Below, piece after piece: positions 13,760-24,301 of a stretch of 64,000 nucleotides of DNA (the stretch's first letter is position 1; every line of letters begins with the position of its first letter). The notes beneath the pieces were generated by a model that was not told the DNA's origin, searched no databases, and worked only from the letters and a program-made list of their open reading frames with translations. The stretch is from an uncultured bacterium (GTDB lineage: Bacteria; Acidobacteriota; Thermoanaerobaculia; Multivoradales; J023), in NCBI GenBank assembly GCA_965366625.1, contig CBDUGP010000038.1, positions 4,239-68,238 of the forward strand, written 5' to 3'. Both the position numbers and the translations under genes were made by a program.

Positions 13760-16324
13760 TCAAAGCTTGGCGCCGGCGGGACCCAGATTGGGTACCACCC
13801 GTTGGGTCAACAAATGGCGAATTTGGCTGACGCTGCTGGTGGTCATGAGCTGCTGGAGCTCCTGGCCGTCCAAGCCGGCATAGGTCGAGGAGCCGTCGAA
13901 GGTCTTGAGCAAAGTCGACTTGAGGTCGGCTAAGGTTTCATGCAGGGATTGGTATTCCTGCTCCAGGTGCTGCCGAGCCGCTTCCTCTCCCAGCTCTTCG
14001 ACTAAGCCGACCTGGATTTCCCTCAGGTACACGTTGTCGGGGTGGTTGAGCTGGTGATCGAGGCAAATCAGCTCGAAGGGGCTGCTGTCCTCGGCCTCCT
14101 GGATCCAAGAAACCAACCGGCGAGCGGCGCCGCCGAAGCTCGAAAGCACGAAGACCGGTTTACCTGCGCGGTGCATTTGGCAGATCCCCTCCAACACCCC
14201 GGAGGCGAACCCGCTCCAGCCGTAGGGCTTCCCACCCAAAGCCACCATGGCTTCGGAGTCTTCGGCGATCCTGCGGCGCATGGCGCTCAAGCTCCGGCCT
14301 CGCCAGAGGGCTCGTTGCGATTCAGTCATCTGATCTTGGGACTCGCCTTCGGATAGGTCTTCGGCGCGCACGTCATGGAAAGTGCAAAGACCGTGCAGGT
14401 CGGCGCGGGTGGCGGTGTCGGTGCTCTGGTAGAAATCCCAGGCTTGATAACTGTGGACGAAGGTCTCCGGTTGAGCTTCCGACCGATGGGAGACTTCATG
14501 GCTACCGGAGAACATCATGCCGGCCGCGTCGAGCACCGAGACCAAAAATTCCCGGGTTTGGGTGCGCAACAACACACCCCCGTATGAGAGCCGGGCCCGG
14601 GCTCCGATCAAAGCAGTGGCAAGCCGATACACGGCATCGTCGAGGTGCTCGGGGCCATAACCCAGGGCATAGAGTTCGTCGAGCTCCGGATCACCGACAG
14701 AAAGGGCGACCATCGGAGCACGGTCCAGCTGAAGCTCATCGAATTCCGGATCTTTGCGCAGGGAAGTCGGCTGGTGGTCGGGGTTGCGAAATTCCATCGC
14801 CAGCTCTTCCACCGACATGAATTGAACGGATTCTCCCCAATAATTTTGTAGGCGCAGCTCGTCACTTTGGGCCAGACCGTGACCGGGGTAGATCACCAAG
14901 GACCTATCCAGGGGACTCCGAGTTTTGGCCTTGCCGTCGCTCTCTTGGGGTTTTCGAGCGGGATAGGCCCATTCCATCAGGGTATAGGGATCGGGAACCC
15001 AGGTTAGGAAGTGGACCTCCAGCTCTTCTCCATCCGCAGCCTGCCGATGGCGTCCCGTGTGTCGGGCCAACAGGAGGGCATGGCGAGCCTGAATCTCCGC
15101 CCGCAGGGCTTCCAACATGACTCGGTCGAGGATCTCGGCGATGGCCTCCGGATCGTCTCGCCAACGGACGATCGGCGTGCCAGACATCTCCGGCAGCAGC
15201 CGGCTCCAACCCTGGCCCAGGGTGTCGACAATGACTGTCGGCTGGATCCACCAAATGCAATCCAACGCCCAGGCCTCTCCGGCAGTCGACCGATTCGGCG
15301 GACTCTGCTCGGGGCCGCCCGGCTCGGGGCGAAACACGGTGCTGATCTTTCGAGGATGCCTTGCCCGGCGGATTTCCTCCCGGCACCAATACCTAGACGC
15401 GTAGAGATCCCCGAAGATGGCGATGAACGCGGCCGTGCGCTCGCCGGCTGCCGACACCATGGGATCTTGCCAATGGGCGCCCCAATCCAAATCGGTGGTG
15501 TCGAAAAAGGTGTCGATCTGCCCTTGATTGAGGGCCTCCGCGCGGATTTTTTCCGCCACGCCGACACCGCTTTCACGGTCCCCCTTGGCATGGCTCAAGA
15601 AAACGGACCTGGGCAGGAGATCCGCCCTGAGAGGGTCCCGGCGCAGGCGCAGCTCGCGTACCAAGGTTTGAACCAGGAAGCGACGAATCCGTTGGGCACG
15701 ACGATCCCGGCGGCGCAGTGCGGCTTGTTCGGGATCCACTCCCCGATCGTCGTCGTCCCAGCGGTCGACGCGCACCGCATTGATGGCGCTGATCACGGGG
15801 GCCAGGCGCGAGATGCTCGAGTGGAGCTGGACCGGGATCAGCAACACCCGGCCGCCGGCTTGCCGGGGTCGTGTTGGCGGGCCACCGCTGTCGTCTTGCG
15901 GCAAGCTCTGGCGATGGAGCTTGCCGACGCCGTAAAGCCAACCGCGCCAATCCCCATCGTTGACCATGTGCTCGTCGACCAAGGGTATGACCACATTGAT
16001 CTCGGCATGCTCGAATTGAATCGGACGATGCGGGCTCTCCCAGTCGGACTGGTTTCCGGGCTCGTCCTGCTCGCGGCTTTCGGCGCCGCCGTAGGTCTCA
16101 TGGATCTTCGAGGAATAGCGGGGTGTCAAGGGGCCGCAGCGATAGTAGACCGGCACCCCGGCTCCCGACCGCTCCACCGCCGTGCTGGGTTTTCGGAACC
16201 AATCGTAGACGGCCTTGGCTAAGTGAGCACCGTCCGTACAGTCGGGATGCCAGGCTACGTAGATGGTCAAGGGGCCGGTGGGACCGGGACCTCGGTGCTT
16301 TTTGTTCGCCATTCGCTTGTTCAC
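13760..16324 (-). CDS. TIR-like + TIR domain protein with ~480-aa uncharacterised C-terminal region (candidate defence/NADase protein)
   Basis: aa ~20-130 'LTIYVAWHPDCTDGAHLAKAVYDWF...INVVIPLVDEHMVNDGDWRGWLYGV' (TIR-like pattern); aa ~235-320 'VFLSHAKGDRESGVGVAEKIRAEALNQGQIDTFFDTTDLDWGAHW...AAFIAIFGDLYASRYWCREEI' (canonical TIR betaA/alphaA and S.WC.EE alphaC with glutamates); C-terminal Gly-rich patches 'LSYGG', 'LGGKPYGWSG', 'VLSSFGGAARRL'; GTG at 16324 or ATG at 16312. Confidence 0.8.
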   Translation of the reverse strand: MNKRMANKKHRGPGPTGPLTIYVAWHPDCTDGAHLAKAVYDWFRKPSTAVERSGAGVPVYYRCGPLTPRYSSKIHETYGGAESREQDEPGNQSDWESPHRPIQFEHAEINVVIPLVDEHMVNDGDWRGWLYGVGKLHRQSLPQDDSGGPPTRPRQAGGRVLLIPVQLHSSISRLAPVISAINAVRVDRWDDDDRGVDPEQAALRRRDRRAQRIRRFLVQTLVRELRLRRDPLRADLLPRSVFLSHAKGDRESGVGVAEKIRAEALNQGQIDTFFDTTDLDWGAHWQDPMVSAAGERTAAFIAIFGDLYASRYWCREEIRRARHPRKISTVFRPEPGGPEQSPPNRSTAGEAWALDCIWWIQPTVIVDTLGQGWSRLLPEMSGTPIVRWRDDPEAIAEILDRVMLEALRAEIQARHALLLARHTGRHRQAADGEELEVHFLTWVPDPYTLMEWAYPARKPQESDGKAKTRSPLDRSLVIYPGHGLAQSDELRLQNYWGESVQFMSVEELAMEFRNPDHQPTSLRKDPEFDELQLDRAPMVALSVGDPELDELYALGYGPEHLDDAVYRLATALIGARARLSYGGVLLRTQTREFLVSVLDAAGMMFSGSHEVSHRSEAQPETFVHSYQAWDFYQSTDTATRADLHGLCTFHDVRAEDLSEGESQDQMTESQRALWRGRSLSAMRRRIAEDSEAMVALGGKPYGWSGFASGVLEGICQMHRAGKPVFVLSSFGGAARRLVSWIQEAEDSSPFELICLDHQLNHPDNVYLREIQVGLVEELGEEAARQHLEQEYQSLHETLADLKSTLLKTFDGSSTYAGLDGQELQQLMTTSSVSQIRHLLTQRVVPNLGPAGAKL

Positions 16325-16372: not shown

Positions 16373-17527
16373 TCATCGTTTGCCGGCAAAAACCTGAACC
16401 CAAAGAATCTTGAAGTCGCCGTCCTTTTCGCCCAGGGCCATGCCAGTGCCGATTTCCCTCAATTTTCGGTGGAGGATGTTGGCGCGGTGTCCCGGGCTGG
16501 CCATCCAGCCCTCCATCACCTGTTCCACTCCGGTTTGGCCGCTACCCAAATTCTCGGCAACCCGAGGCGGTTCATAGCCGATTCTGTTTACCCGATCCCG
16601 GACCGATTTTCCTTCGGGAGAGGTATGGCCATAAAAACCACGTTCGAGCATATCTTCTGCGTATTTTTGAGCCACGCGATCCAACGCAGGGTGGCTATCG
16701 AGAGGGCGTAGGCGCAGCTTGCGTCGCTCTTGATTGACGAGAGTTAGAACCTGTTCGCGTACTTTTGAGAGATCGCTCAGAGGTCGAGTGGCGTCTAAAT
16801 AGTAGGCGACCCTGGAGGTGGCCGCGATGAGGTAGTAGAACCTGAGGCGCCCGAAGTCGGCGCTGCCGATGCCGAGATGTTGCAGACTCGGGTTGTGGAG
16901 ATTGTCAAAGGTGTGACGTGCACGGACCATCCATGAGTCGACCCATGGCCCCGGCTCACCGGCTCCACCGGCGTAATAGGTGGTGGTGATTTCGAAGTAG
17001 ATATAACCGCGCGCTTCGAGCAAGGCGGCAGCTCGGTCCGCGGACAGGTCGACCCCCAACCAACTGCCCGAGCGGACCACCTCATCGGCAAAGGTCTGAG
17101 CCACTGCTTGGACGTCGGGGTGGCGAAGGAAAGGCTGCAAGCCGAGCGCGATCCGTTCGTTCTGGATTCGTTGCGCCAAATAGGCCGAGATGGGATCGGA
17201 ATCCGCGACCCTAGGAGAGGCAGGTTCGGCGTCGGTCTCTACGTTGGTCTCTACGTTGGTCTCTACGTCGGTCTCTACGTCGGTCTTGAAGTCGGTTCCT
17301 TGACCCAACGAAACCGCCGCCGTCGTTGAGCAAAACCAAAGAAGGCAGATGGCTGCCGCTCGCAACCATCTGCCTTCTACTGGGGACCTAGCAGTCTCGG
17401 ACTTAGCAGTCTCGGACCTAGCAGTCTCGACCGCGTTCGCGTTGACCACTACCGAGCCGGCCACGGACCGTGGGCGTTCATTGGGCGGTCTTCTCCACCG
17501 CACGGAGGTCGGCTGGGATCCGTTCAC
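16373..17527 (-). CDS. Secreted CAP/SCP (PR-1/YkwD-like) domain protein, two CAP-like modules, with VETD/VETN and ETAKS peptide repeats
   Basis: C-terminal 'YGHTSPEGKSVRDRV...GENLGSGQTGVEQVMEGWMASPGHRANIL' CAP signature; signal peptide 'RWLRAAAICLLWFCSTTAAVSLG' only at aa 53, so start may be an internal TTG (~17362). Confidence 0.75.
   Translation of the reverse strand: MNGSQPTSVRWRRPPNERPRSVAGSVVVNANAVETARSETAKSETARSPVEGRWLRAAAICLLWFCSTTAAVSLGQGTDFKTDVETDVETNVETNVETDAEPASPRVADSDPISAYLAQRIQNERIALGLQPFLRHPDVQAVAQTFADEVVRSGSWLGVDLSADRAAALLEARGYIYFEITTTYYAGGAGEPGPWVDSWMVRARHTFDNLHNPSLQHLGIGSADFGRLRFYYLIAATSRVAYYLDATRPLSDLSKVREQVLTLVNQERRKLRLRPLDSHPALDRVAQKYAEDMLERGFYGHTSPEGKSVRDRVNRIGYEPPRVAENLGSGQTGVEQVMEGWMASPGHRANILHRKLREIGTGMALGEKDGDFKILWVQVFAGKR
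17234..17293. repeat. 12-bp tandem repeat ggtctctacgtt x5 inside CAP gene (encodes VETD/VETN x4)
   Basis: Visible in sequence. Confidence 0.9.
17387..17431. repeat. 15-bp tandem repeat cctagcagtctcgga x3 in CAP gene 5' region (encodes ETAKS/ETARS repeats, or lies in the leader if the internal start is used)
   Basis: Visible in sequence. Confidence 0.9.
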
Positions 17528-18965
17528 TCGTAGGTGATAAATCCAGGGTTCATGATGCCGTCGGGGTCAAAGGTCTTCTTCGCTGCCTTGAATCTTTCCC
17601 AGGTCTCGGTGCCGAAGTGGTTCTCCCAATCCTCGGGGGTGTTGAAGGTGATGTACCCCGACAAGTAACGCTTGCCGCCGTAGCCGATGGAAAGCTTGCT
17701 GACCATGTCGAGGTTTTCGAGCGCCATGTCGAGAAATTGAGGCGGAACCGCCGGCAAGATGCCCCAACCCATGACGAAATCTCCGCCCGGATGTTTGAAG
17801 AAAGGCACGTCGGAAGTATCACCACGGGAGGGCCAGAGCAGGATGTGTCCCGCCGGGCCCAGGCTTTGGGGCGGCAAGTTGTCGAGCGCGAATTCGATGA
17901 ACTCTTGGGCTTTGTCCCACGGCAATACGGATTCCATCCAAGGGTGGGCCATTTGCCAATTGCCGGAGTTGTGCCAGATCTCGAAGACCGGCTCTAGTCG
18001 ACGACAGAATTCTTCTTGGGTGTATTCGTCGGTTTGCAGGTGGCGATGGAAGTTGAGGTCCTTGAGCAGCTCTTCGTCGTTCGGCTCCTCTCCTTCCTCG
18101 TACTCCACGGTCAAGAACATGGGGTAGGTCCAATAGGCGTAGAGCTGAGCACCCTCCCTCAATTTCAAGCCGTCACCGATTCGTTTCATGAAGATCGGGC
18201 ACGGGGCACAGCGGGACTCGAGGGTGTGGAAGCGGGTGTCGTTCGGATCCATGACGCTTTCTGCGTCTTTCATGAACACACCGAGGTCGTCGTAGAGCAG
18301 GTGGTACATGCGGATCTTCTGCAGCGGCGCAGCTTGGTTTTCACCCGGGTGATGATGCCGAATTGGCTGAGCCCGGAGCGTACGCTGTTGAATAGGTCGG
18401 CATTCTCTTCCCGCGAGCAAGTGACGATGTCACCGGCTCCGGTGACCACCTCAAGTTCGATGGCGCTGTCGGCTTGGGTGCCGTATTTGTAGGAAGCGAC
18501 ACCGAGACCTGCCACTGAAGTGGTTCCGGCAATACTCACCCCGAGATTGTTGGTGAGCACCGGGGGCACAAAACCCATCGGCACGACTTTGACCACCAGA
18601 TCGTGCCAAACCACCCCACCGTCACAATCGGCGTAAAGTTCATCTTCGTTGATGCTGTGGATGGTTTGCATGGCGCTGGTATCGACCACCACACCGCCGT
18701 TGGTGGTGCTTTGCCCGGTCTGGGTATGGCCTTGGCCACGGGCCACGATCGGAACCTTGAATTTTCGGCAGTAGCGAATCACCTCTGCGACTTCTGCGGC
18801 GTTGGTGCAACGGGCGATGGCGCCGGGGGTTTGGAAGACCACCTTGCCGAAGTCGGTCTCAAATTTTGAGCGCTCGTCTGCACGTAAATCGATACGGTCG
18901 CCGAATGCCTCGGCAAGTCCTTGGATAGCTTTCGACAAAGCCTCTCCTTCGGCCATGGAACTCAT
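17524..18965 (-). pseudogene. Cytokinin dehydrogenase-like FAD-linked oxidase split by a 1-nt frameshift near 18328-18335 (pseudogene or sequencing error)
   Basis: ORF 18270-18965 = FAD_binding_4 (PCMH) domain 'VPIVARGQGHTQTGQSTTNGGVVVD...GIITRVKTKL' then junk; ORF 17524-18420 in another frame resumes 'AAPLQKIRMYHLLYDDLGVF...KRYLSGYITFNTPEDWENHFG...FDPDGIMNPG' = CKX cytokinin-binding C-terminus. Confidence 0.6.
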
Positions 18966-19128
18966 ATTTCTTCCTTTTCAGTAGGGTATTCGTTGCTGGA
19001 GCTCGGATGCTCAATCTGGGTGGGAGAACCGTCGACGGGCCGTTGAGCAGCTAGGGTGGCTCTCTGGGCTCTCTTCGTGGGATCGCTGGATTCGGTTTCG
19101 GGCGGCGGGGCCATATCTCGCCGGACCT

Positions 19129-19479
19129 TTAAGGGGCCGCGGAGCCTTCCGCGTGCAGGGCAGCGTCGAGATCGGGATAGGTCGGAAAGAGTCCGTCGAT
19201 CTGGGCGACCTTGAGCAGCTTGCAGATGCGATCCGAAGGTGAAACCAGGATCAGCTTTCGGTCGCGCTCGGCGAAGCGGGAAAGGTATCCCACCAGCTCG
19301 CCGATTCCCGTCGAATCGATGTAGTTGATCTTCGACAGATCCAAGAGCACATGCCCTTCATCTCTTTCTAAGGTTCGTTCTAGGCTCTGAACCAAAAACT
19401 CGGCGCTTTGGCCGAGCTTAATGATGCCTTCCACGCTCAAGAGCACCATCTCGTCCACTCGTCGCTTGTCGATGATCAC
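19129..19479 (-). CDS. STAS-domain anti-sigma-factor antagonist (SpoIIAA-like)
   Basis: 'LDLSKINYIDSTGIGELV' with conserved phosphorylatable Ser/Thr context; 116 aa. Confidence 0.85.
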   Translation of the reverse strand: MIIDKRRVDEMVLLSVEGIIKLGQSAEFLVQSLERTLERDEGHVLLDLSKINYIDSTGIGELVGYLSRFAERDRKLILVSPSDRICKLLKVAQIDGLFPTYPDLDAALHAEGSAAP

Positions 19480-19696: not shown

Positions 19697-20158
19697 ATGA
19701 TTCGCCTGGGCATCGTTTCGGATACACACGGTCAATTGCGGTCGCGCGTTTTAGAGCAATTGGACGGATGCGACCGCATTTTGCACGCCGGAGACGTGGG
19801 TGATGCCACGATTCTCGACCGCTTGGGCGAACTCGCACCCACGGACGCCGTGCGGGGCAATGTCGATTTCGGGGATCGGCTGAGCGCGTTGCCGGCGGTG
19901 ATTTCCGGCTCAGCTGAGCAGGTCGCCTATCGCATGATCCACCAACGGGAGCATGTTCCCGTCGACTGGCAGAGTTCGGCGCAGTTGATTATTTATGGCC
20001 ACAACCATCGACCCGAACTCGAGTGGCGCGGGCGCACCCTGTGGTTAAACCCGGGGGCGGCGGGCCCGCGCCGATTCCACCTACCCCTGACCGTCGCCGT
20101 GGTCACGATCCACGAATCCCAGATGGTGCCGGAGATCTTTTCGGTGGAGCCCGAATGA
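19697..20158 (+). CDS. YfcE/MJ0936-family metallophosphoesterase
   Basis: 'MIRLGIVSDTHG', 'ILHAGDVGD', 'RGNVD', 'IIYGHNHRP' calcineurin-like motifs; 153 aa. Confidence 0.85.
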   Translation: MIRLGIVSDTHGQLRSRVLEQLDGCDRILHAGDVGDATILDRLGELAPTDAVRGNVDFGDRLSALPAVISGSAEQVAYRMIHQREHVPVDWQSSAQLIIYGHNHRPELEWRGRTLWLNPGAAGPRRFHLPLTVAVVTIHESQMVPEIFSVEPE

Positions 20159-20481
20159 GCTTAAACGACCTGACCTTGGAGGACCCGGCTCTCTGGATCG
20201 CCTTGATCACCATGGTCGGCGCTGTCACCTTGGTTGCAGCGGTAGCGAAAAACGTGGTGTCGAGGTTGCGGTCTCGTTCCCAGGAGCTTCGCGAGCAGGA
20301 CGAGCTGCTTTCCCGTCGGTGCGACGAACTCAGCCATCGACTCGATCAATGGACCACCCGAGATCGCATCGATCATTTGTCGGATCTGGTGCGTGCGGGA
20401 GTGCGCGGGGGTCGGTTGGAGCCGGAGGTCGGTCGTCAGCTCGAAGCTTACCTCCGAGAATTGCGCTCCCCCGAGGCCTGA
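20155..20481 (+). CDS. Small membrane protein, hypothetical
   Basis: Internal Met 'MSLNDLTLEDPALWIALITMVGAVTLVAAVAKNVV' (one TM helix then coiled/charged tail); ATGA overlap with upstream stop and TGATG overlap with downstream start. Confidence 0.4.
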   Translation: MSLNDLTLEDPALWIALITMVGAVTLVAAVAKNVVSRLRSRSQELREQDELLSRRCDELSHRLDQWTTRDRIDHLSDLVRAGVRGGRLEPEVGRQLEAYLRELRSPEA

Positions 20482-21620
20482 TGCGCGTCGGCTTCGACCT
20501 CTCCAAGGCCCACCATGCCGACGGAATCGGTACCTGGCAACGGGAAATGGGCCGGGCCTTGGCTGAACAGGTCGAACACCGCGGCGAGCCCGTTGCCCTC
20601 CAAGCTTTGTCTCTGACTGCTCCTTGGAGCCCTACTGCGCTAGGCCTGATTCAAAAAGCCATGGGCAGTCAGGCAAGCCTTTTTCAGTGGCCTGGGCTTT
20701 CGGCATCGACCGGCGGGTCCGGCATCGCACGATCCCAGGAGATTGCGGGATCCGAGGAGATCGTGATTTCCTCGGCCTGGGCCGTGCCCCCGGGTTTCGG
20801 CGGCACCTTATTTTTCGTCGTCCACGATTTGACCTTCTTGACCCATCCCCACTGCCATACCGAGGCGAATCGCTTGCATTGTTTAGCAGGCTGGCTGCGG
20901 GCGGCTTTGGTGGCCGAGGGTCGCTTTTTGGCCGTGTCCCAGGCCACCGCGGATGTGCTCTCGGGTTGGTTGCCGGCCGAGGGGCGAACGTCTGTGATCC
21001 ACAACGGGGTGAGCCCGTTTTGGCGTCCTTTGGAGCGAGACGAAGAGCGAGACGAGGTGGCCGGCATCCTCGACACTTCCTTCACCCTGCGGCCGGATGG
21101 TTTCGTCTTGAGTGTGGGCTCTTTCGAGCCGCGCAAGAACCTCGACGGCTTGTTGACCGCACATCAACGGCTGCCCGACGAGCTGCGTCAACGATTCCCG
21201 CTAGTGTTGGCCGGCAGCCAGGGCTGGAAGAACGAGCGACTTATGGCACGGTTGGATCGAGACCCTCAGGTCCGGGTCTTGGGTCGGGTCAGCGAGGGGG
21301 AGCTATTGGCTCTATATAACGGTGCGGCAGTCTTTGCGTATCCTTCCCTGGCCGAGGGTTTCGGTTTGCCGGCGGCGGAAGCCTTGGCCTGTGGGACTGC
21401 AGTTTTGGCGTCCAATTCCTCCTCCCTGCCCGAGGTGGTCGGAAAAGCGGCGGAAATGGTGGATCCCGAGCTGCCCGAGGCCATATCCTCAGCCCTTGCG
21501 AAGTTGCTCACGGATTCCCAAATGCGACAGGATCTGGCCGACCGGGGGCCCGCCCAAGCAGCACGGTTCTCTTGGCAAAAGTCGGCCGCAAAGCTCTTGG
21601 ATCTGATCCTCGATCCTTGA
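20481..21620 (+). CDS. Glycosyltransferase family 4 (GT-B, GT1 superfamily)
   Basis: 'SFEPRKNLDGLL', 'LVLAGSQGW', 'AAVFAYPSLAEGFGLPAAEALACGTAVLASNSSSLPEVVG' (E-X7-E region). Confidence 0.85.
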   Translation: MRVGFDLSKAHHADGIGTWQREMGRALAEQVEHRGEPVALQALSLTAPWSPTALGLIQKAMGSQASLFQWPGLSASTGGSGIARSQEIAGSEEIVISSAWAVPPGFGGTLFFVVHDLTFLTHPHCHTEANRLHCLAGWLRAALVAEGRFLAVSQATADVLSGWLPAEGRTSVIHNGVSPFWRPLERDEERDEVAGILDTSFTLRPDGFVLSVGSFEPRKNLDGLLTAHQRLPDELRQRFPLVLAGSQGWKNERLMARLDRDPQVRVLGRVSEGELLALYNGAAVFAYPSLAEGFGLPAAEALACGTAVLASNSSSLPEVVGKAAEMVDPELPEAISSALAKLLTDSQMRQDLADRGPAQAARFSWQKSAAKLLDLILDP

Positions 21621-21700
21621 CGGACCCGGAGAACCGAAGATCTCGACGAGCCTCCCGGCTCAAATCTATCCAGCCCCCGGGCCTTAGACGGAACCATCGG

Positions 21701-24301
21701 ATGACGACACCCCTCAACGCCTGCACCATCGTGTCGAAGAATTACATCTGTTATGCGCGGGTGTTGTGCGACTCGTTCTTGGACCATCACCCGGACGGAC
21801 GGTTCTTCGTGTTGTTGGTGGATCGCAACGACGGCTCGATCGACGTCGATGGGGAAAAGTTCACGCTCTTTGAAGCGGAAGACCTTGCCAACATCCCCCG
21901 TCGGGATGCGTTTCTCTTCAAATACACGTTGTTGGAGTGCAATACGGCGGTCAAACCCTTCTTCCTCGAGCACCTGATCGAGGCCTACGACCTGCCGAAT
22001 CTGGTCTATTTCGATCCGGACATCATGATCACCGGCAGCCTCGACCAGCTGGCCCAGTATGTCGAGCAGTATTCGGTGGTGCTGACGCCACATTTAACCG
22101 ACCCGATCGAAGACCAAGCCTTTCCCAACGAGCAGGCGATCCTGCAATCCGGCTCTTATAATTTGGGCTTCGTGGCCTTCCGAACCACCGAAACCAGCCG
22201 ACGTGTGATCCGCTGGTGGCAGGAACGCCTCTACGACAAATGTGTGGTGCGCATTGCCGACGGTTTGTTCGTCGATCAAAAGTGGATGGACTTGGTGCCG
22301 GGCATGTTCGGTGGGCTGACCGGTGAGGTCCTGGTGCTCAACCATCCGGGTTATAACGTCGCCTATTGGAATCTTCACGGACGTCGGGTCACCATGGGAC
22401 CCGACGGTCCGGAGTCGAACGGCATGCCCTTGGTGTTTTTTCACTTCAGTGGCATTCGTCCCGAGAGCTTGGACGGCGTTTCGAAACACCAGGATCGATT
22501 CGAACTCTCGGATATCGGCGAAGCAGCCCAGCTTTACCGCGAGTACGCGGACAAGGTGATCAAAGCCGGCTATTTCGACTGTCGTCCCTGGCCCTATGCC
22601 TTCGGCCGATTCGATAACGGCGTGCGAATTCCCGACGCGGCGCGATCGCTCTTTCACGGCCTGACACCCGGTGAGCAGGCCACTTTCCATAATCCGTTCA
22701 CCACGGGGGGGGCGAACGCCTTCTTTGACTGGCTCAACCAGCCGGTTCCGGGCGCCTCGGTGTCTCGGCTTCTCCATCATCTCTACCAAAGCCGGAGCGA
22801 TCTCAACTTTGGCGACATTCTGCGCGAGCCCGGCTGGGTCGCGTATTCGGCTTGGCTGGCGGAATACGGACGTCACGAGCTGAATCTCGATCCGGAGATG
22901 CTGCGAGGATTGGATCTCAATCCAGGAGATTGGCTCACCCCCGTCGGGCTCAAGCGCCGAATTCGACATGGCCTCAAGCGGGTCTATCATTCAGGGCTGG
23001 GAAAGCAGGCCAAGACCCTGCTCAAGCGGAGTCTGGGTCCTGAACGCAGCCGTCGATTGAAGACACGGCTGCGCAAACCCGTGCCGGTCGCCGCCACCGC
23101 CGGCTCTGGAGTGGGCCACTCTAACCGCGGGATCGAGGTGAACTCTCTAGGTCTGAACTTGGTGGGTTACCTCGACGCGGAAACGGGCATGGGGCAAGCA
23201 GGTCGCTCGTTGGTGGCAGCTTGCAGAGCGGCGGCCATTCCCGTTTCACCCCACACTCTCGAGTTGGGGGTGGTGGCTCGGCGTCAACATACGGCCTTTG
23301 CCGGGGCGACGAGCGACTTTGAGCATGGGATCAATCTCTTCGTGGTCAACGCCGACCAAGCCCATGCGGTGCGCGATCACCTGGGGCGAGACGTTTACCA
23401 CGGCCGATACAATATCGGTCTGTGGCTTTGGGAGCAGGAGCGCTTTCCCGACAGCTTGCGCGGCGCGTTCGAGCTTTACGACGAAATCTGGACTCCGAGC
23501 AGCTTCTGTGTCGACGCGATCAGCGCGGTTTCGCCGGTGCCGGTGCGTCGGATTCCTTTGCCGGTCACAAGTCCCGAGGGCGCGGCAGACGGGACGGATC
23601 GAGCCGTCGACGACTTGCGTCGCGAGCTGGACTTGCCCCAGGGCGCGTTCGTTTTCCTGTTCATGTTCAGCTTTTTGTCTTATGCGCAGCGCAAGAATCC
23701 GGAGGCGGCGGTCCAAGCCTTCAAACAAGCTTTCGGCGATGCGCAAGATCGGGTTCTGGTGCTCAAGACCTCCCAAAAGGACTTTGCCCCCGAGGCCTAC
23801 GATCGGTTGGTGGCGAAGATCGGCGGCGCCGACAACATTCGCTTGATCGACGACTACTATTCGTCGGAGCAGGTGGAGACCTTGACCCGGGCTGCAGACG
23901 CATACCTTTCCCTGCACCGCTCGGAGGGGTTCGGGCTGACGCTGGCGGAAGCCATGGTCCAGGGCAAGCCGGTGGTCGCCACCCCGTATTCTGGGGTCAC
24001 GGATTTTTTCAACGTCAACAATGGATATCCCGTCCGGTACCGGCTGGTCACCCTTGAGCAAGACGTCGGTCCCTACCCCGCCGGCAGCGTCTGGGCCGAT
24101 GCGGACGTCGACCACGCAGCCGAGCAATTGAAGAGATTGGTGGCCGACGACCAAGAGAGGGCTGCTCTCGCCCGGCGGGCGCAGCAGGACATTCGCGACC
24201 TCTTGAGCCCTGAGACCGTCGGCGCCGCCATGAAGCGCCAGTTGACCGAAGTCCTCCGGCGGGATGGATTCAAAAAAACGCTGTCAATGCCCCTGGGCTG
24301 A
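21701..24301 (+). CDS. Bifunctional glycosyltransferase: N-terminal GT-A-like nucleotide-sugar transferase domain + C-terminal GT4 domain
   Basis: N-term 'CTIVSKNYICYARVLCDSFLDHHPDGRFFVLLVD...YFDPDIMI' ; C-term 'LSLHRSEGFGLTLAEAMVQGKPVVATPYSGVTDF'; ATG at 21701 (MTTPLNAC). Confidence 0.75.
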   Translation: MTTPLNACTIVSKNYICYARVLCDSFLDHHPDGRFFVLLVDRNDGSIDVDGEKFTLFEAEDLANIPRRDAFLFKYTLLECNTAVKPFFLEHLIEAYDLPNLVYFDPDIMITGSLDQLAQYVEQYSVVLTPHLTDPIEDQAFPNEQAILQSGSYNLGFVAFRTTETSRRVIRWWQERLYDKCVVRIADGLFVDQKWMDLVPGMFGGLTGEVLVLNHPGYNVAYWNLHGRRVTMGPDGPESNGMPLVFFHFSGIRPESLDGVSKHQDRFELSDIGEAAQLYREYADKVIKAGYFDCRPWPYAFGRFDNGVRIPDAARSLFHGLTPGEQATFHNPFTTGGANAFFDWLNQPVPGASVSRLLHHLYQSRSDLNFGDILREPGWVAYSAWLAEYGRHELNLDPEMLRGLDLNPGDWLTPVGLKRRIRHGLKRVYHSGLGKQAKTLLKRSLGPERSRRLKTRLRKPVPVAATAGSGVGHSNRGIEVNSLGLNLVGYLDAETGMGQAGRSLVAACRAAAIPVSPHTLELGVVARRQHTAFAGATSDFEHGINLFVVNADQAHAVRDHLGRDVYHGRYNIGLWLWEQERFPDSLRGAFELYDEIWTPSSFCVDAISAVSPVPVRRIPLPVTSPEGAADGTDRAVDDLRRELDLPQGAFVFLFMFSFLSYAQRKNPEAAVQAFKQAFGDAQDRVLVLKTSQKDFAPEAYDRLVAKIGGADNIRLIDDYYSSEQVETLTRAADAYLSLHRSEGFGLTLAEAMVQGKPVVATPYSGVTDFFNVNNGYPVRYRLVTLEQDVGPYPAGSVWADADVDHAAEQLKRLVADDQERAALARRAQQDIRDLLSPETVGAAMKRQLTEVLRRDGFKKTLSMPLG

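Follow-up and report, generated by a model that had tools for sequence, protein, structure and literature searches.

TIR and SLOG domains in described systems

The effector of type IX Thoeris, ThsJ, is described as 'TIR and SLOG'; in B. subtilis, ThsJ and ThsB protect the cells from phage SP82G (Yirmiya et al., bioRxiv 10.64898/2025.12.03.692087). Added 3'cADPR triggered no ThsJ toxicity in the same study, a point against the ligand-gated reading given below. ThsA of type I Thoeris is a SIR2-SLOG protein, in which E403 and glycine backbone atoms (G289, G399) bind 3'cADPR (Manik et al.). Type III Thoeris consists of several TIR proteins and a SLOG effector (van den Berg et al., 2024). TIR-SAVED (CBASS/type III CRISPR), TIR-STING and SARM1 likewise have a nucleotide sensor fused to a TIR domain, and their NADase activity needs TIR-TIR assembly.

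The gene described here lies in a 64-kb stretch of DNA, the whole of which was analysed and is called the window below. Its product has the same module order as ThsJ: an N-terminal region with an H-P motif, a TIR domain with the W-x-x-x-E glutamate and a SLOG domain of the cluster 2/3 group. The two sequences are very distant, and ThsJ is shorter (623 aa vs. 850-854 aa). A BLASTP of the window protein against ThsJ of B. cereus VD021 (BcThsJ) returned a 60-aa motif only, a nearly uninformative result that called for profile methods. BcThsJ is colinear with the HMM of the window protein's family (E = 9e-23), and hhalign matched it with 96.8% probability, over the SLOG domain only. For the SLOG domain of BcThsJ, cluster 3 gives a slightly better score than cluster 2.

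The enzymatic module of the window protein is a TIR domain where ThsA has SIR2, and its SLOG domain is cluster 2 and not STALD (no SIR2 or STALD match at E <= 1). It also differs from ThsA in its extra pseudo-TIR and in lacking an adjacent ThsB. Type III Thoeris, too, joins TIR domains with a SLOG-containing effector, but spreads them over several genes, with the TIR proteins encoded separately, whereas the window gene has no TIR genes beside it. The only NCBIfam match to type III Thoeris was ThcB4, a TIR protein, which scored 19.3 bits where the cutoff is 220. Structure searches place TIR-SAVED, TIR-STING and SARM1 among the neighbours of both TIR-fold domains of the window protein; the sensor is however SLOG, not SAVED, STING or ARM, CD-NTase or CRISPR context is lacking, and a second, degenerate TIR fold is carried in the same chain.

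Assignment to a known system was rejected, as the NCBIfam TIR matches were far below threshold and PADLOC returned no system for the window protein. Its two weak PADLOC matches, ThsB1 (E = 0.033) and PDC-S66 (E = 0.0024), fall on the TIR region, and ThsA is not among them. The architecture itself is not new. Pfam curates SLOG cluster 2 as a family (PF18163), TIR-SLOG systems are cited in the accessible literature and ThsJ is a validated effector, so the "undescribed" fused protein proposed in an earlier note on this DNA is better seen as a case of a known fusion.

Gene and domain organization

The gene and its modules are located as follows.

13760..16324, minus strand: whole ORF, 854 aa from GTG 16324 in the ORF listing
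15638..16276, minus strand: N-terminal cryptic TIR-fold domain, aa ~17-229
15056..15613, minus strand: catalytic-type TIR domain, aa ~238-423 (Pfam core aa 241-328)
15374..15376, minus strand: codon of E317, predicted catalytic glutamate of the WCxxE motif (conservation and Roq1 alignment)
14720..15049, minus strand: middle α/β linker, aa ~426-535 (model secondary structure and conservation table)
14087..14713, minus strand: SLOG domain, cluster 2, aa 538-746, with a predicted nucleotide-ligand pocket
13766..14074, minus strand: C-terminal helical region, aa ~751-853 (model secondary structure, pLDDT 80-96)

The ORF lies where the earlier note placed it; it is on the minus strand and gives 854 aa from a GTG start. 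An alternative start, ATG 16312, is preceded by an AAGGG Shine-Dalgarno-like motif and gives a protein of 850 aa. A database protein of 850 aa (P0001) is 100% identical to the window protein and matches the ATG 16312 start, which we judge from the sequence to be the more likely of the two. Against a 73%-identical orthologue, dN/dS is 0.13 for the whole ORF and 0.08-0.17 in each of its modules, with dS near saturation (~1.4). The ORF is real and the gene is under purifying selection. It encodes four modules, i.e., a cryptic N-terminal TIR fold, a canonical TIR domain, an α/β linker and a SLOG cluster 2 domain with a helical tail; the structure models were built on shallow alignments (15-17 sequences).

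The canonical TIR domain is matched by TIR_2 (PF13676; aa 241-328) at 36.4 bits against a cutoff of 28, and the region of aa ~238-423 has a TIR fold. Its WCxxE motif aligns with the WCLEEL motif of Roq1. E317 is invariant in 17/17 aligned sequences and present in 64/65 in a larger alignment, and the whole TIR signature is nearly invariant across the 65 proteins. The earlier reading of this domain as a TIR of NADase type, with its catalytic Glu conserved, is supported, and the window protein probably cleaves NAD through the E317 TIR.

The N-terminal domain is different. The earlier note had read it as a TIR-like block and expected TIR_2 or TIR-like matches for aa 20-330. The fold is there, although it was recognized by fold search only, and the TIR_2 match covers aa 241-328; the N-terminal domain itself has no Pfam match at E <= 5 and no sequence-profile similarity to TIR domains. 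A tandem TIR at the sequence level was rejected, as hhalign gave a probability of 4.8% between the N-terminal domain and the canonical TIR; all other domain pairs were negative too. An insert at aa ~64-103 is disordered, and the domain closes with a long helix (aa 198-229). The fourth residue past the invariant W126, equated with the catalytic position by motif register and not by structural superposition, is L, I or V family-wide, and no acidic residue is conserved in the W126 helix across the family. As the catalytic Glu is missing, we predict that the domain is a pseudo-TIR without activity.

The linker has no Pfam match. P444, D/E445 and P480 are conserved family-wide, and the subgroup of longer proteins to which the window protein belongs (the long clade, see below) adds G-H-G after P480 (PGHG). 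The C-terminal helical region has no significant Pfam match either, but is conserved within the family (dN/dS 0.17).

The remaining ~480 aa, first thought to match no family, include a clear SLOG domain: aa 538-746 match SLOG cluster 2 (PF18163) at 98.3 bits against a cutoff of 25.3 (E = 7e-28), and the same family is carried by 16/16 full-length homologues of the first search. The earlier guess of a SLOG-type Rossmannoid C-terminal module was thus correct. The domain adopts the Rossmannoid fold typical of SLOG, complete with Gly-rich loops and a conserved acidic residue. Conservation is seen at Y581-G-G583, R683, G698, G705, G709, E712 and F730-G-G732, and across 65 proteins there is hardly any variation in the Gly-rich loops, R683 or E712. 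Position 713 is Gly in the window protein vs. Glu in 64/65 relatives, which counts against a ThsJ-type reading.

A SLOG domain of this kind could be an enzyme. LOG enzymes have a catalytic Arg/Glu pair, which the invariant R683 and E712 recall, and Foldseek matched the window protein to a LOG structure (5its). The accessible literature includes the proposal that some SLOG domains break the 1'-ribosyl N-glycosidic bond in ADPR derivatives, and nucleotide-processing genes (Nmad2, MazG_C, UDG-like) are frequent in the operons of shorter relatives. The SLOG domain would then be a LOG-like N-glycosidase that processes the TIR product, and the protein would make or destroy a signal instead of being a terminal effector. 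We find this improbable. The best solved structural match of the SLOG part is the non-catalytic, ligand-binding SLOG domain of ThsA (179/196 residues aligned), where the same motif residues bind 3'cADPR, and no conserved downstream effector gene adjoins the long clade.

Taken together, the modules are consistent with a ThsJ-type NAD+ hydrolase of the cytoplasm that has several domains, is gated by a ligand and operates without a dedicated ThsB, a reading to which we give an even chance.

Family clades and linkage to ThsB

We surveyed 80 reference-genome loci of the family. The genome scan was seeded by an 8-sequence subset of the alignment and two peptide patterns, and is therefore biased towards members that keep those patterns; ORFs were called crudely, taking the longest ORFs greedily. 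UPGMA on identities gave an unrooted split into two clades. In the short clade (~675 aa), which includes the P. macerans-type layout of type IX Thoeris, a ThsB-type TIR gene lies within 3 kb in 45/49 loci, and the P. macerans type IX ThsB is 52% identical to the ThsB-like neighbours (E = 1e-31). In the long clade, the same was found in only 1/26 loci (Fisher p = 1e-14). ThsB, the signal generator, is the defining second component of Thoeris. An HMM derived from ThsB had no match in 24/26 long-clade loci. This absence covers the flanks of the loci (±8-10 kb) and the 64-kb window. TIR-SLOG fusion is already known, and the ThsB-less long clade is a variant of that design.

The family, with about 1,100 cluster representatives at E <= 1e-30, is patchy across more than 10 phyla. 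Long-clade members are widespread, with Acidobacteriota, Planctomycetota and Myxococcota among their phyla; GCA_030431255.1 is one of the long-clade genomes. Short-form relatives lie on plasmids. Some long-clade members are genuine two-gene splits, and ATGA-type stop/start overlaps were found in at least 8 loci. These overlaps suggest that the TIR half and the SLOG half are functionally tied.

A ThsJ-like NADase may also be an orphan, still dependent on a nucleotide signal from ThsB-type TIR proteins encoded elsewhere in the genome or, in some relatives, by clustered TIRs. The sister short clade is almost always linked to ThsB, the SLOG pocket residues are still conserved, and larger TIR genes occur near some long-clade loci: P0008 adjoins TIR, CbiA-TIR and TIR-WD40 genes, P0014 adjoins a TIR-CHAT-AAA_16 gene and a paralogue, and P0018 adjoins TIR and TIR-FGE-sulfatase genes. 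We nonetheless consider an orphan effector unlikely. No small ThsB-like gene lies within 3 kb in 25/26 long-clade loci, the 64 kb of the window hold no second TIR ORF, and Thoeris signal generators and effectors are normally operon-linked, so that their unlinking across many phyla would be unusual.

Genomic context of the window gene

The earlier note saw no obvious partner gene, and none was found here: the 64-kb window contains no further ORF of TIR, SLOG or ThsB-like type, and PADLOC had no defence match among the 13 neighbouring genes scanned. The CAP gene that had been proposed as a possible co-transcribed partner is found beside the TIR-SLOG gene in just one relative, which is 73% identical and fully syntenic. 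It is absent from all more distant loci examined, and the partner reading was rejected for this reason. The 73%-identical orthologue shares the local gene order, and an orthologue of 50% identity shares part of it (FAD oxidase and STAS nearby). Neither defence nor mobile-element genes occur near the gene, the one tRNA is distant, and the GC content of the gene is similar to that of its surroundings. A housekeeping-like, syntenic chromosomal context with zero PADLOC matches is atypical for a defence gene. For the long clade, the earlier expectation that bacterial TIR proteins of this size are typically immune effectors remains an expectation, set against a vertically conserved context.

The conserved gene order, the lack of defence or mobile-element neighbours, the unremarkable GC content and a dN/dS of 0.13, as expected of a stably maintained gene, would suit a non-immune protein. 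It could be a chromosomal NAD+/nucleotide-linked switch in stress, dormancy or development that serves endogenous TIR-SLOG signalling in Acidobacteriota, Planctomycetota and Myxococcota. This we doubt, since the patchiness over more than 10 phyla and the plasmid-borne short forms argue against it, as do neighbours that vary by lineage without a conserved pathway partner; the closest characterised relatives are also all anti-phage. An immune or NAD-targeting role is plausible by homology to Thoeris components.

Possible mechanism and significance

In a ThsJ-type hydrolase that lacks a dedicated ThsB, the SLOG cluster 2 domain would be the receptor for an ADP-ribose-derived nucleotide. Binding of the ligand would change the conformation or oligomeric state of the protein, the catalytic TIRs (Glu317) would assemble into active sites, and the resulting degradation of NAD+ may lead to growth arrest or abortive infection. 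The degenerate N-terminal TIR would most likely be a built-in partner for TIR-TIR packing, acting as a scaffold or as an auto-inhibitor of the active TIR.

The lack of a dedicated ThsB gene in the long clade favours a self-contained mode, in which the protein, or its two-gene split version, would sense its own trigger. The product of the TIR domain could possibly feed back on the SLOG pocket of the same protein. The more specific proposal, that the ThsB-less clade, as one gene or as a translationally coupled pair, is a self-sufficient TIR-SLOG switch for immunity or NAD signalling in which the dead TIR pairs with the active TIR and the SLOG domain senses an ADPR-type nucleotide of its own, host or phage origin, is tentative and we hold it to be possible rather than likely. 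If true, it would amount to a one-protein Thoeris, and could explain why 3'cADPR alone failed to activate type IX ThsJ.

TIR-SLOG proteins are a validated class of Thoeris effectors, of which ThsJ was not triggered by 3'cADPR. The long clade keeps the catalytic and pocket residues, has apparently dropped ThsB and also exists as a clean two-gene split. It is therefore a natural experiment on how TIR NADases are gated, on the role of a hidden second TIR fold and on TIR-SLOG proteins outside classical defence islands. For annotation, what carries the bare label 'TIR domain-containing protein' in these phyla turns out to be ThsJ-like.

An unannotated neighbour family of ~190 aa (c5), absent from the window, recurs at 8 loci.

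Domain structure and conservation

The target ORF lies where the earlier note had placed it, at 13760..16324 on the minus strand, and encodes 854 aa from a GTG start (16324). An ATG at 16312 is preceded by an AAGGG motif and gives an 850-aa protein that is 100% identical to the database protein P0001, and for these reasons it is the more likely start. Comparison with the 73%-identical orthologue gives a dN/dS of 0.13 for the whole gene and 0.08-0.17 per module. Thus, the gene is functional end to end.

Pfam detected TIR_2 at aa 241-328 (36.4 bits; cutoff 28) and SLOG cluster 2 (PF18163) at aa 538-746 (98 bits, E=7e-28). These matches bear out the TIR and SLOG-like modules of the earlier note, and they assign to a known family the C-terminal half that it had regarded as uncharacterised. 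PADLOC and NCBIfam returned only weak, sub-threshold TIR matches to the protein. With 17 aligned sequences as input, AlphaFold2 gave a confident model (pTM 0.83, mean pLDDT 78) comprising:

aa ~17-229, N-terminal α/β domain
aa ~238-423, TIR domain
aa ~426-535, small α/β linker
aa 538-746, SLOG core
aa ~751-853, helical tail

Among 65 full-length members, a TIR signature (F242, S244, H245, K247, D275, D306, Y308, R311, W313, C314, E317) and the SLOG pocket motifs (Y581-G-G583, R683, G698, G705, G709, E712, F730-G-G732) are near-invariant. The WC-EE glutamate previously proposed as catalytic is E317, which is essentially invariant. In ThsA, 3'cADPR is held by the glutamate E403 and by backbone atoms of glycines corresponding to the SLOG motifs of this family (Manik et al.).

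Residue 713, in the SLOG GV.EE motif (window ~14186..14188), is Gly in the window protein and Glu in 64/65 relatives. The close relative P0002 has Gln at this position; E712 is kept in the window protein.

Family size and clades

A word-indexed search found only 17 relatives, with TIR_2 and SLOG cluster 2 in all 16 full-length ones. The family is large: at E<=1e-30, an exhaustive profile search recovered 1,143 cluster representatives. Of the top 150, nearly all match end to end (660-900 aa). Scanning one genome per species gave 130 confirmed relatives, the nearest in a Thermoanaerobaculia MAG (73% identity). The 80 loci kept cover Acidobacteriota, Planctomycetota, Myxococcota, Cyanobacteria, Bacillota, Pasteurellaceae, Neisseria, Verrucomicrobiota and others; short-form members were also found on plasmids.

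ORFs were called in the 80 loci and clustered to find recurrent neighbours. The commonest is a ~183-aa ThsB-type TIR protein (Pfam ThsB_TIR/TIR_2; PADLOC ThsB1 up to 199 bits). Identity clustering divides the family into a short clade (~675 aa) and a long clade (780-880 aa) that includes the window protein. A small ThsB-like gene occurs within 3 kb in 45/49 short-clade loci (92 genes in total) versus 1/26 long-clade loci, a strongly significant difference (Fisher p=1e-14).

A five-gene set recurs in the short clade: ThsB, Nmad2 (PF18753), TIR-SLOG, MazG_C (PF18722) and a UDG-like gene (L051, L052, L062, L065, L070-L073, L086; each time at about 7-12 kb). It is an extended, nucleotide-processing form of the type IX-like operon, and the available text of Yirmiya et al. 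does not mention it. In both clades, an unannotated ~160-220-aa family (cluster c5) directly adjoins several TIR-SLOG genes. It has no match in Pfam, PADLOC or NCBIfam and is missing from the window. Members lie at:

L013, 10391-10921
L017, 7297-7950
L046, 4425-5009
L047, 7290-7874
L043, 7249-7725

Some long-clade members are grouped with other large TIR-domain proteins (L008 10548-15752; L006 10671-17687; L093 197-6689), with TIR, CbiA/ParA-TIR, TIR-WD40, TIR-CHAT-AAA_16, TIR-FGE-sulfatase and tandem TIR-SLOG paralogues.

About a dozen long-clade loci, most of them from Planctomycetota, encode the protein in two genes, as a pseudoTIR-TIR product (~400 aa; pseudoTIR being the N-terminal TIR-fold domain) and a SLOG product (~300-370 aa). 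Both ORFs were called in nine of them: in six the stop and start overlap briefly, in an ATGA-type or similar manner, one has a 5-nt gap and two have longer apparent overlaps, probably from over-extended start calls. Split pairs with ATGA-type or short overlaps were noted at L019, L022, L023, L025, L026, L028, L038, L046 and L047, and L028 has two such pairs. The exhaustive search also found matching ~400-aa representatives. The split versions are genuine fissions and thereby link the two halves functionally.

Relationship to type IX Thoeris

The earlier note had thought the architecture undescribed. TIR-SLOG antiviral systems are, however, cited in the comparative-genomics literature, and Yirmiya et al. 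(bioRxiv, December 2025) give type IX Thoeris two components, ThsB and ThsJ, the latter annotated "TIR and SLOG". In that study, the Bacillus cereus VD021 system shields B. subtilis against phage SP82G; its ThsB produces 3'cADPR, yet adding 3'cADPR did not set off ThsJ toxicity. Standalone TIR proteins were discarded there.

The ThsB-like neighbours (cluster 1) match the P. macerans ThsB sequences published for type IX (52% identity, E=1e-31). A sequence 100% identical to the validated B. cereus ThsB was found; the gene downstream of it encodes ThsJ (623 aa, TIR_2 plus SLOG), whose SLOG domain scores higher as cluster 3 (69 bits) than as cluster 2 (53 bits). This ThsJ is colinear with the HMM of the target family (E=9e-23) and matches its SLOG domain in hhalign (96.8%), although in pairwise comparison it is very distant from the window protein. 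The window protein thus has the architecture and probably the mechanism of ThsJ, yet it lacks the adjacent ThsB that defines type IX Thoeris. ThsJ-type TIR-SLOG effectors are known; new here is the ThsB-less long clade, fused or split, whose proteins carry a cryptic second TIR fold.

The best-supported reading is that the protein is a SLOG-gated TIR NADase. The predicted SLOG pocket would take up an ADPR-derived nucleotide, the protein would reorganise or oligomerise, and the catalytic TIR (E317) would break down NAD+. The dead N-terminal TIR fold may be a packing partner within the same chain, scaffolding or auto-inhibiting. Alternatively, the SLOG domain could itself be catalytically active, LOG-like, and process the TIR product. 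The protein could also be an orphan effector that responds to TIR proteins encoded elsewhere. We favor a self-contained mode over reliance on a distal ThsB, since ThsB is missing at 25/26 diverse long-clade loci, though in Thoeris the generator normally shares an operon with the effector.

Genomic neighborhood

The gene stands alone, as the earlier note had it: the 64-kb window holds no other TIR, SLOG or ThsB-like ORF, and PADLOC had no match among 13 neighboring genes. No tRNA was found close to the gene. The neighbors (hybrid histidine kinase, PQQ β-propeller, CAP/YkwD protein, FAD oxidase, STAS, Metallophos_2, glycosyltransferases) are syntenic with the locus of the 73% orthologue. This housekeeping-like, syntenic context speaks for another alternative, a non-immune physiological NAD/nucleotide switch. 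The CAP gene, once suggested as a partner, is missing from every locus more distant than the 73% orthologue and is therefore rejected as one.

Compared with the intact orthologue in L001 (481 aa), the FAD_binding_4/cytokinin-dehydrogenase-like oxidase gene (window ~17524..18965, minus strand) carries a frameshift: aa 1-217 and aa 217-480 align in different frames at 92-94% identity, with the junction near ~18315-18321. The shift marks either a pseudogene or a mistake in the assembly. A hairpin with a 17-bp stem, followed by a T-rich tract (17340..17378, minus strand), ~145 nt past the oxidase stop codon, may be the oxidase terminator. It falls in the 5' portion of the long ORF called for CAP (16373..17527), whose true start is probably further downstream, as the orthologous CAP protein has only 302 aa. 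The oxidase and STAS genes lie near TIR-SLOG even in the 50%-identical homologue P0007 (L095 1-1261; window 17524..19479), either because synteny persists within the lineage or because a CKX-like oxidase is linked to a LOG-superfamily domain.

Long-clade members repeatedly have calcineurin-like phosphoesterase (Metallophos) genes beside or near them (L094 4464-6023; L004 6616-7803; window 19697..20158), and at the locus of the relative P0010 such a gene has a 4-bp overlap with the TIR-SLOG stop codon. Speculatively, such a gene could be an ADPR/cADPR-hydrolysing accessory. Two downstream glycosyltransferases (L001 2259-6029, orthologous to window 20319..24301) match Pfam GT4-conflict (PF20706) as well as generic GT4 families, and the GT4-conflict matches are probably cross-family similarity.
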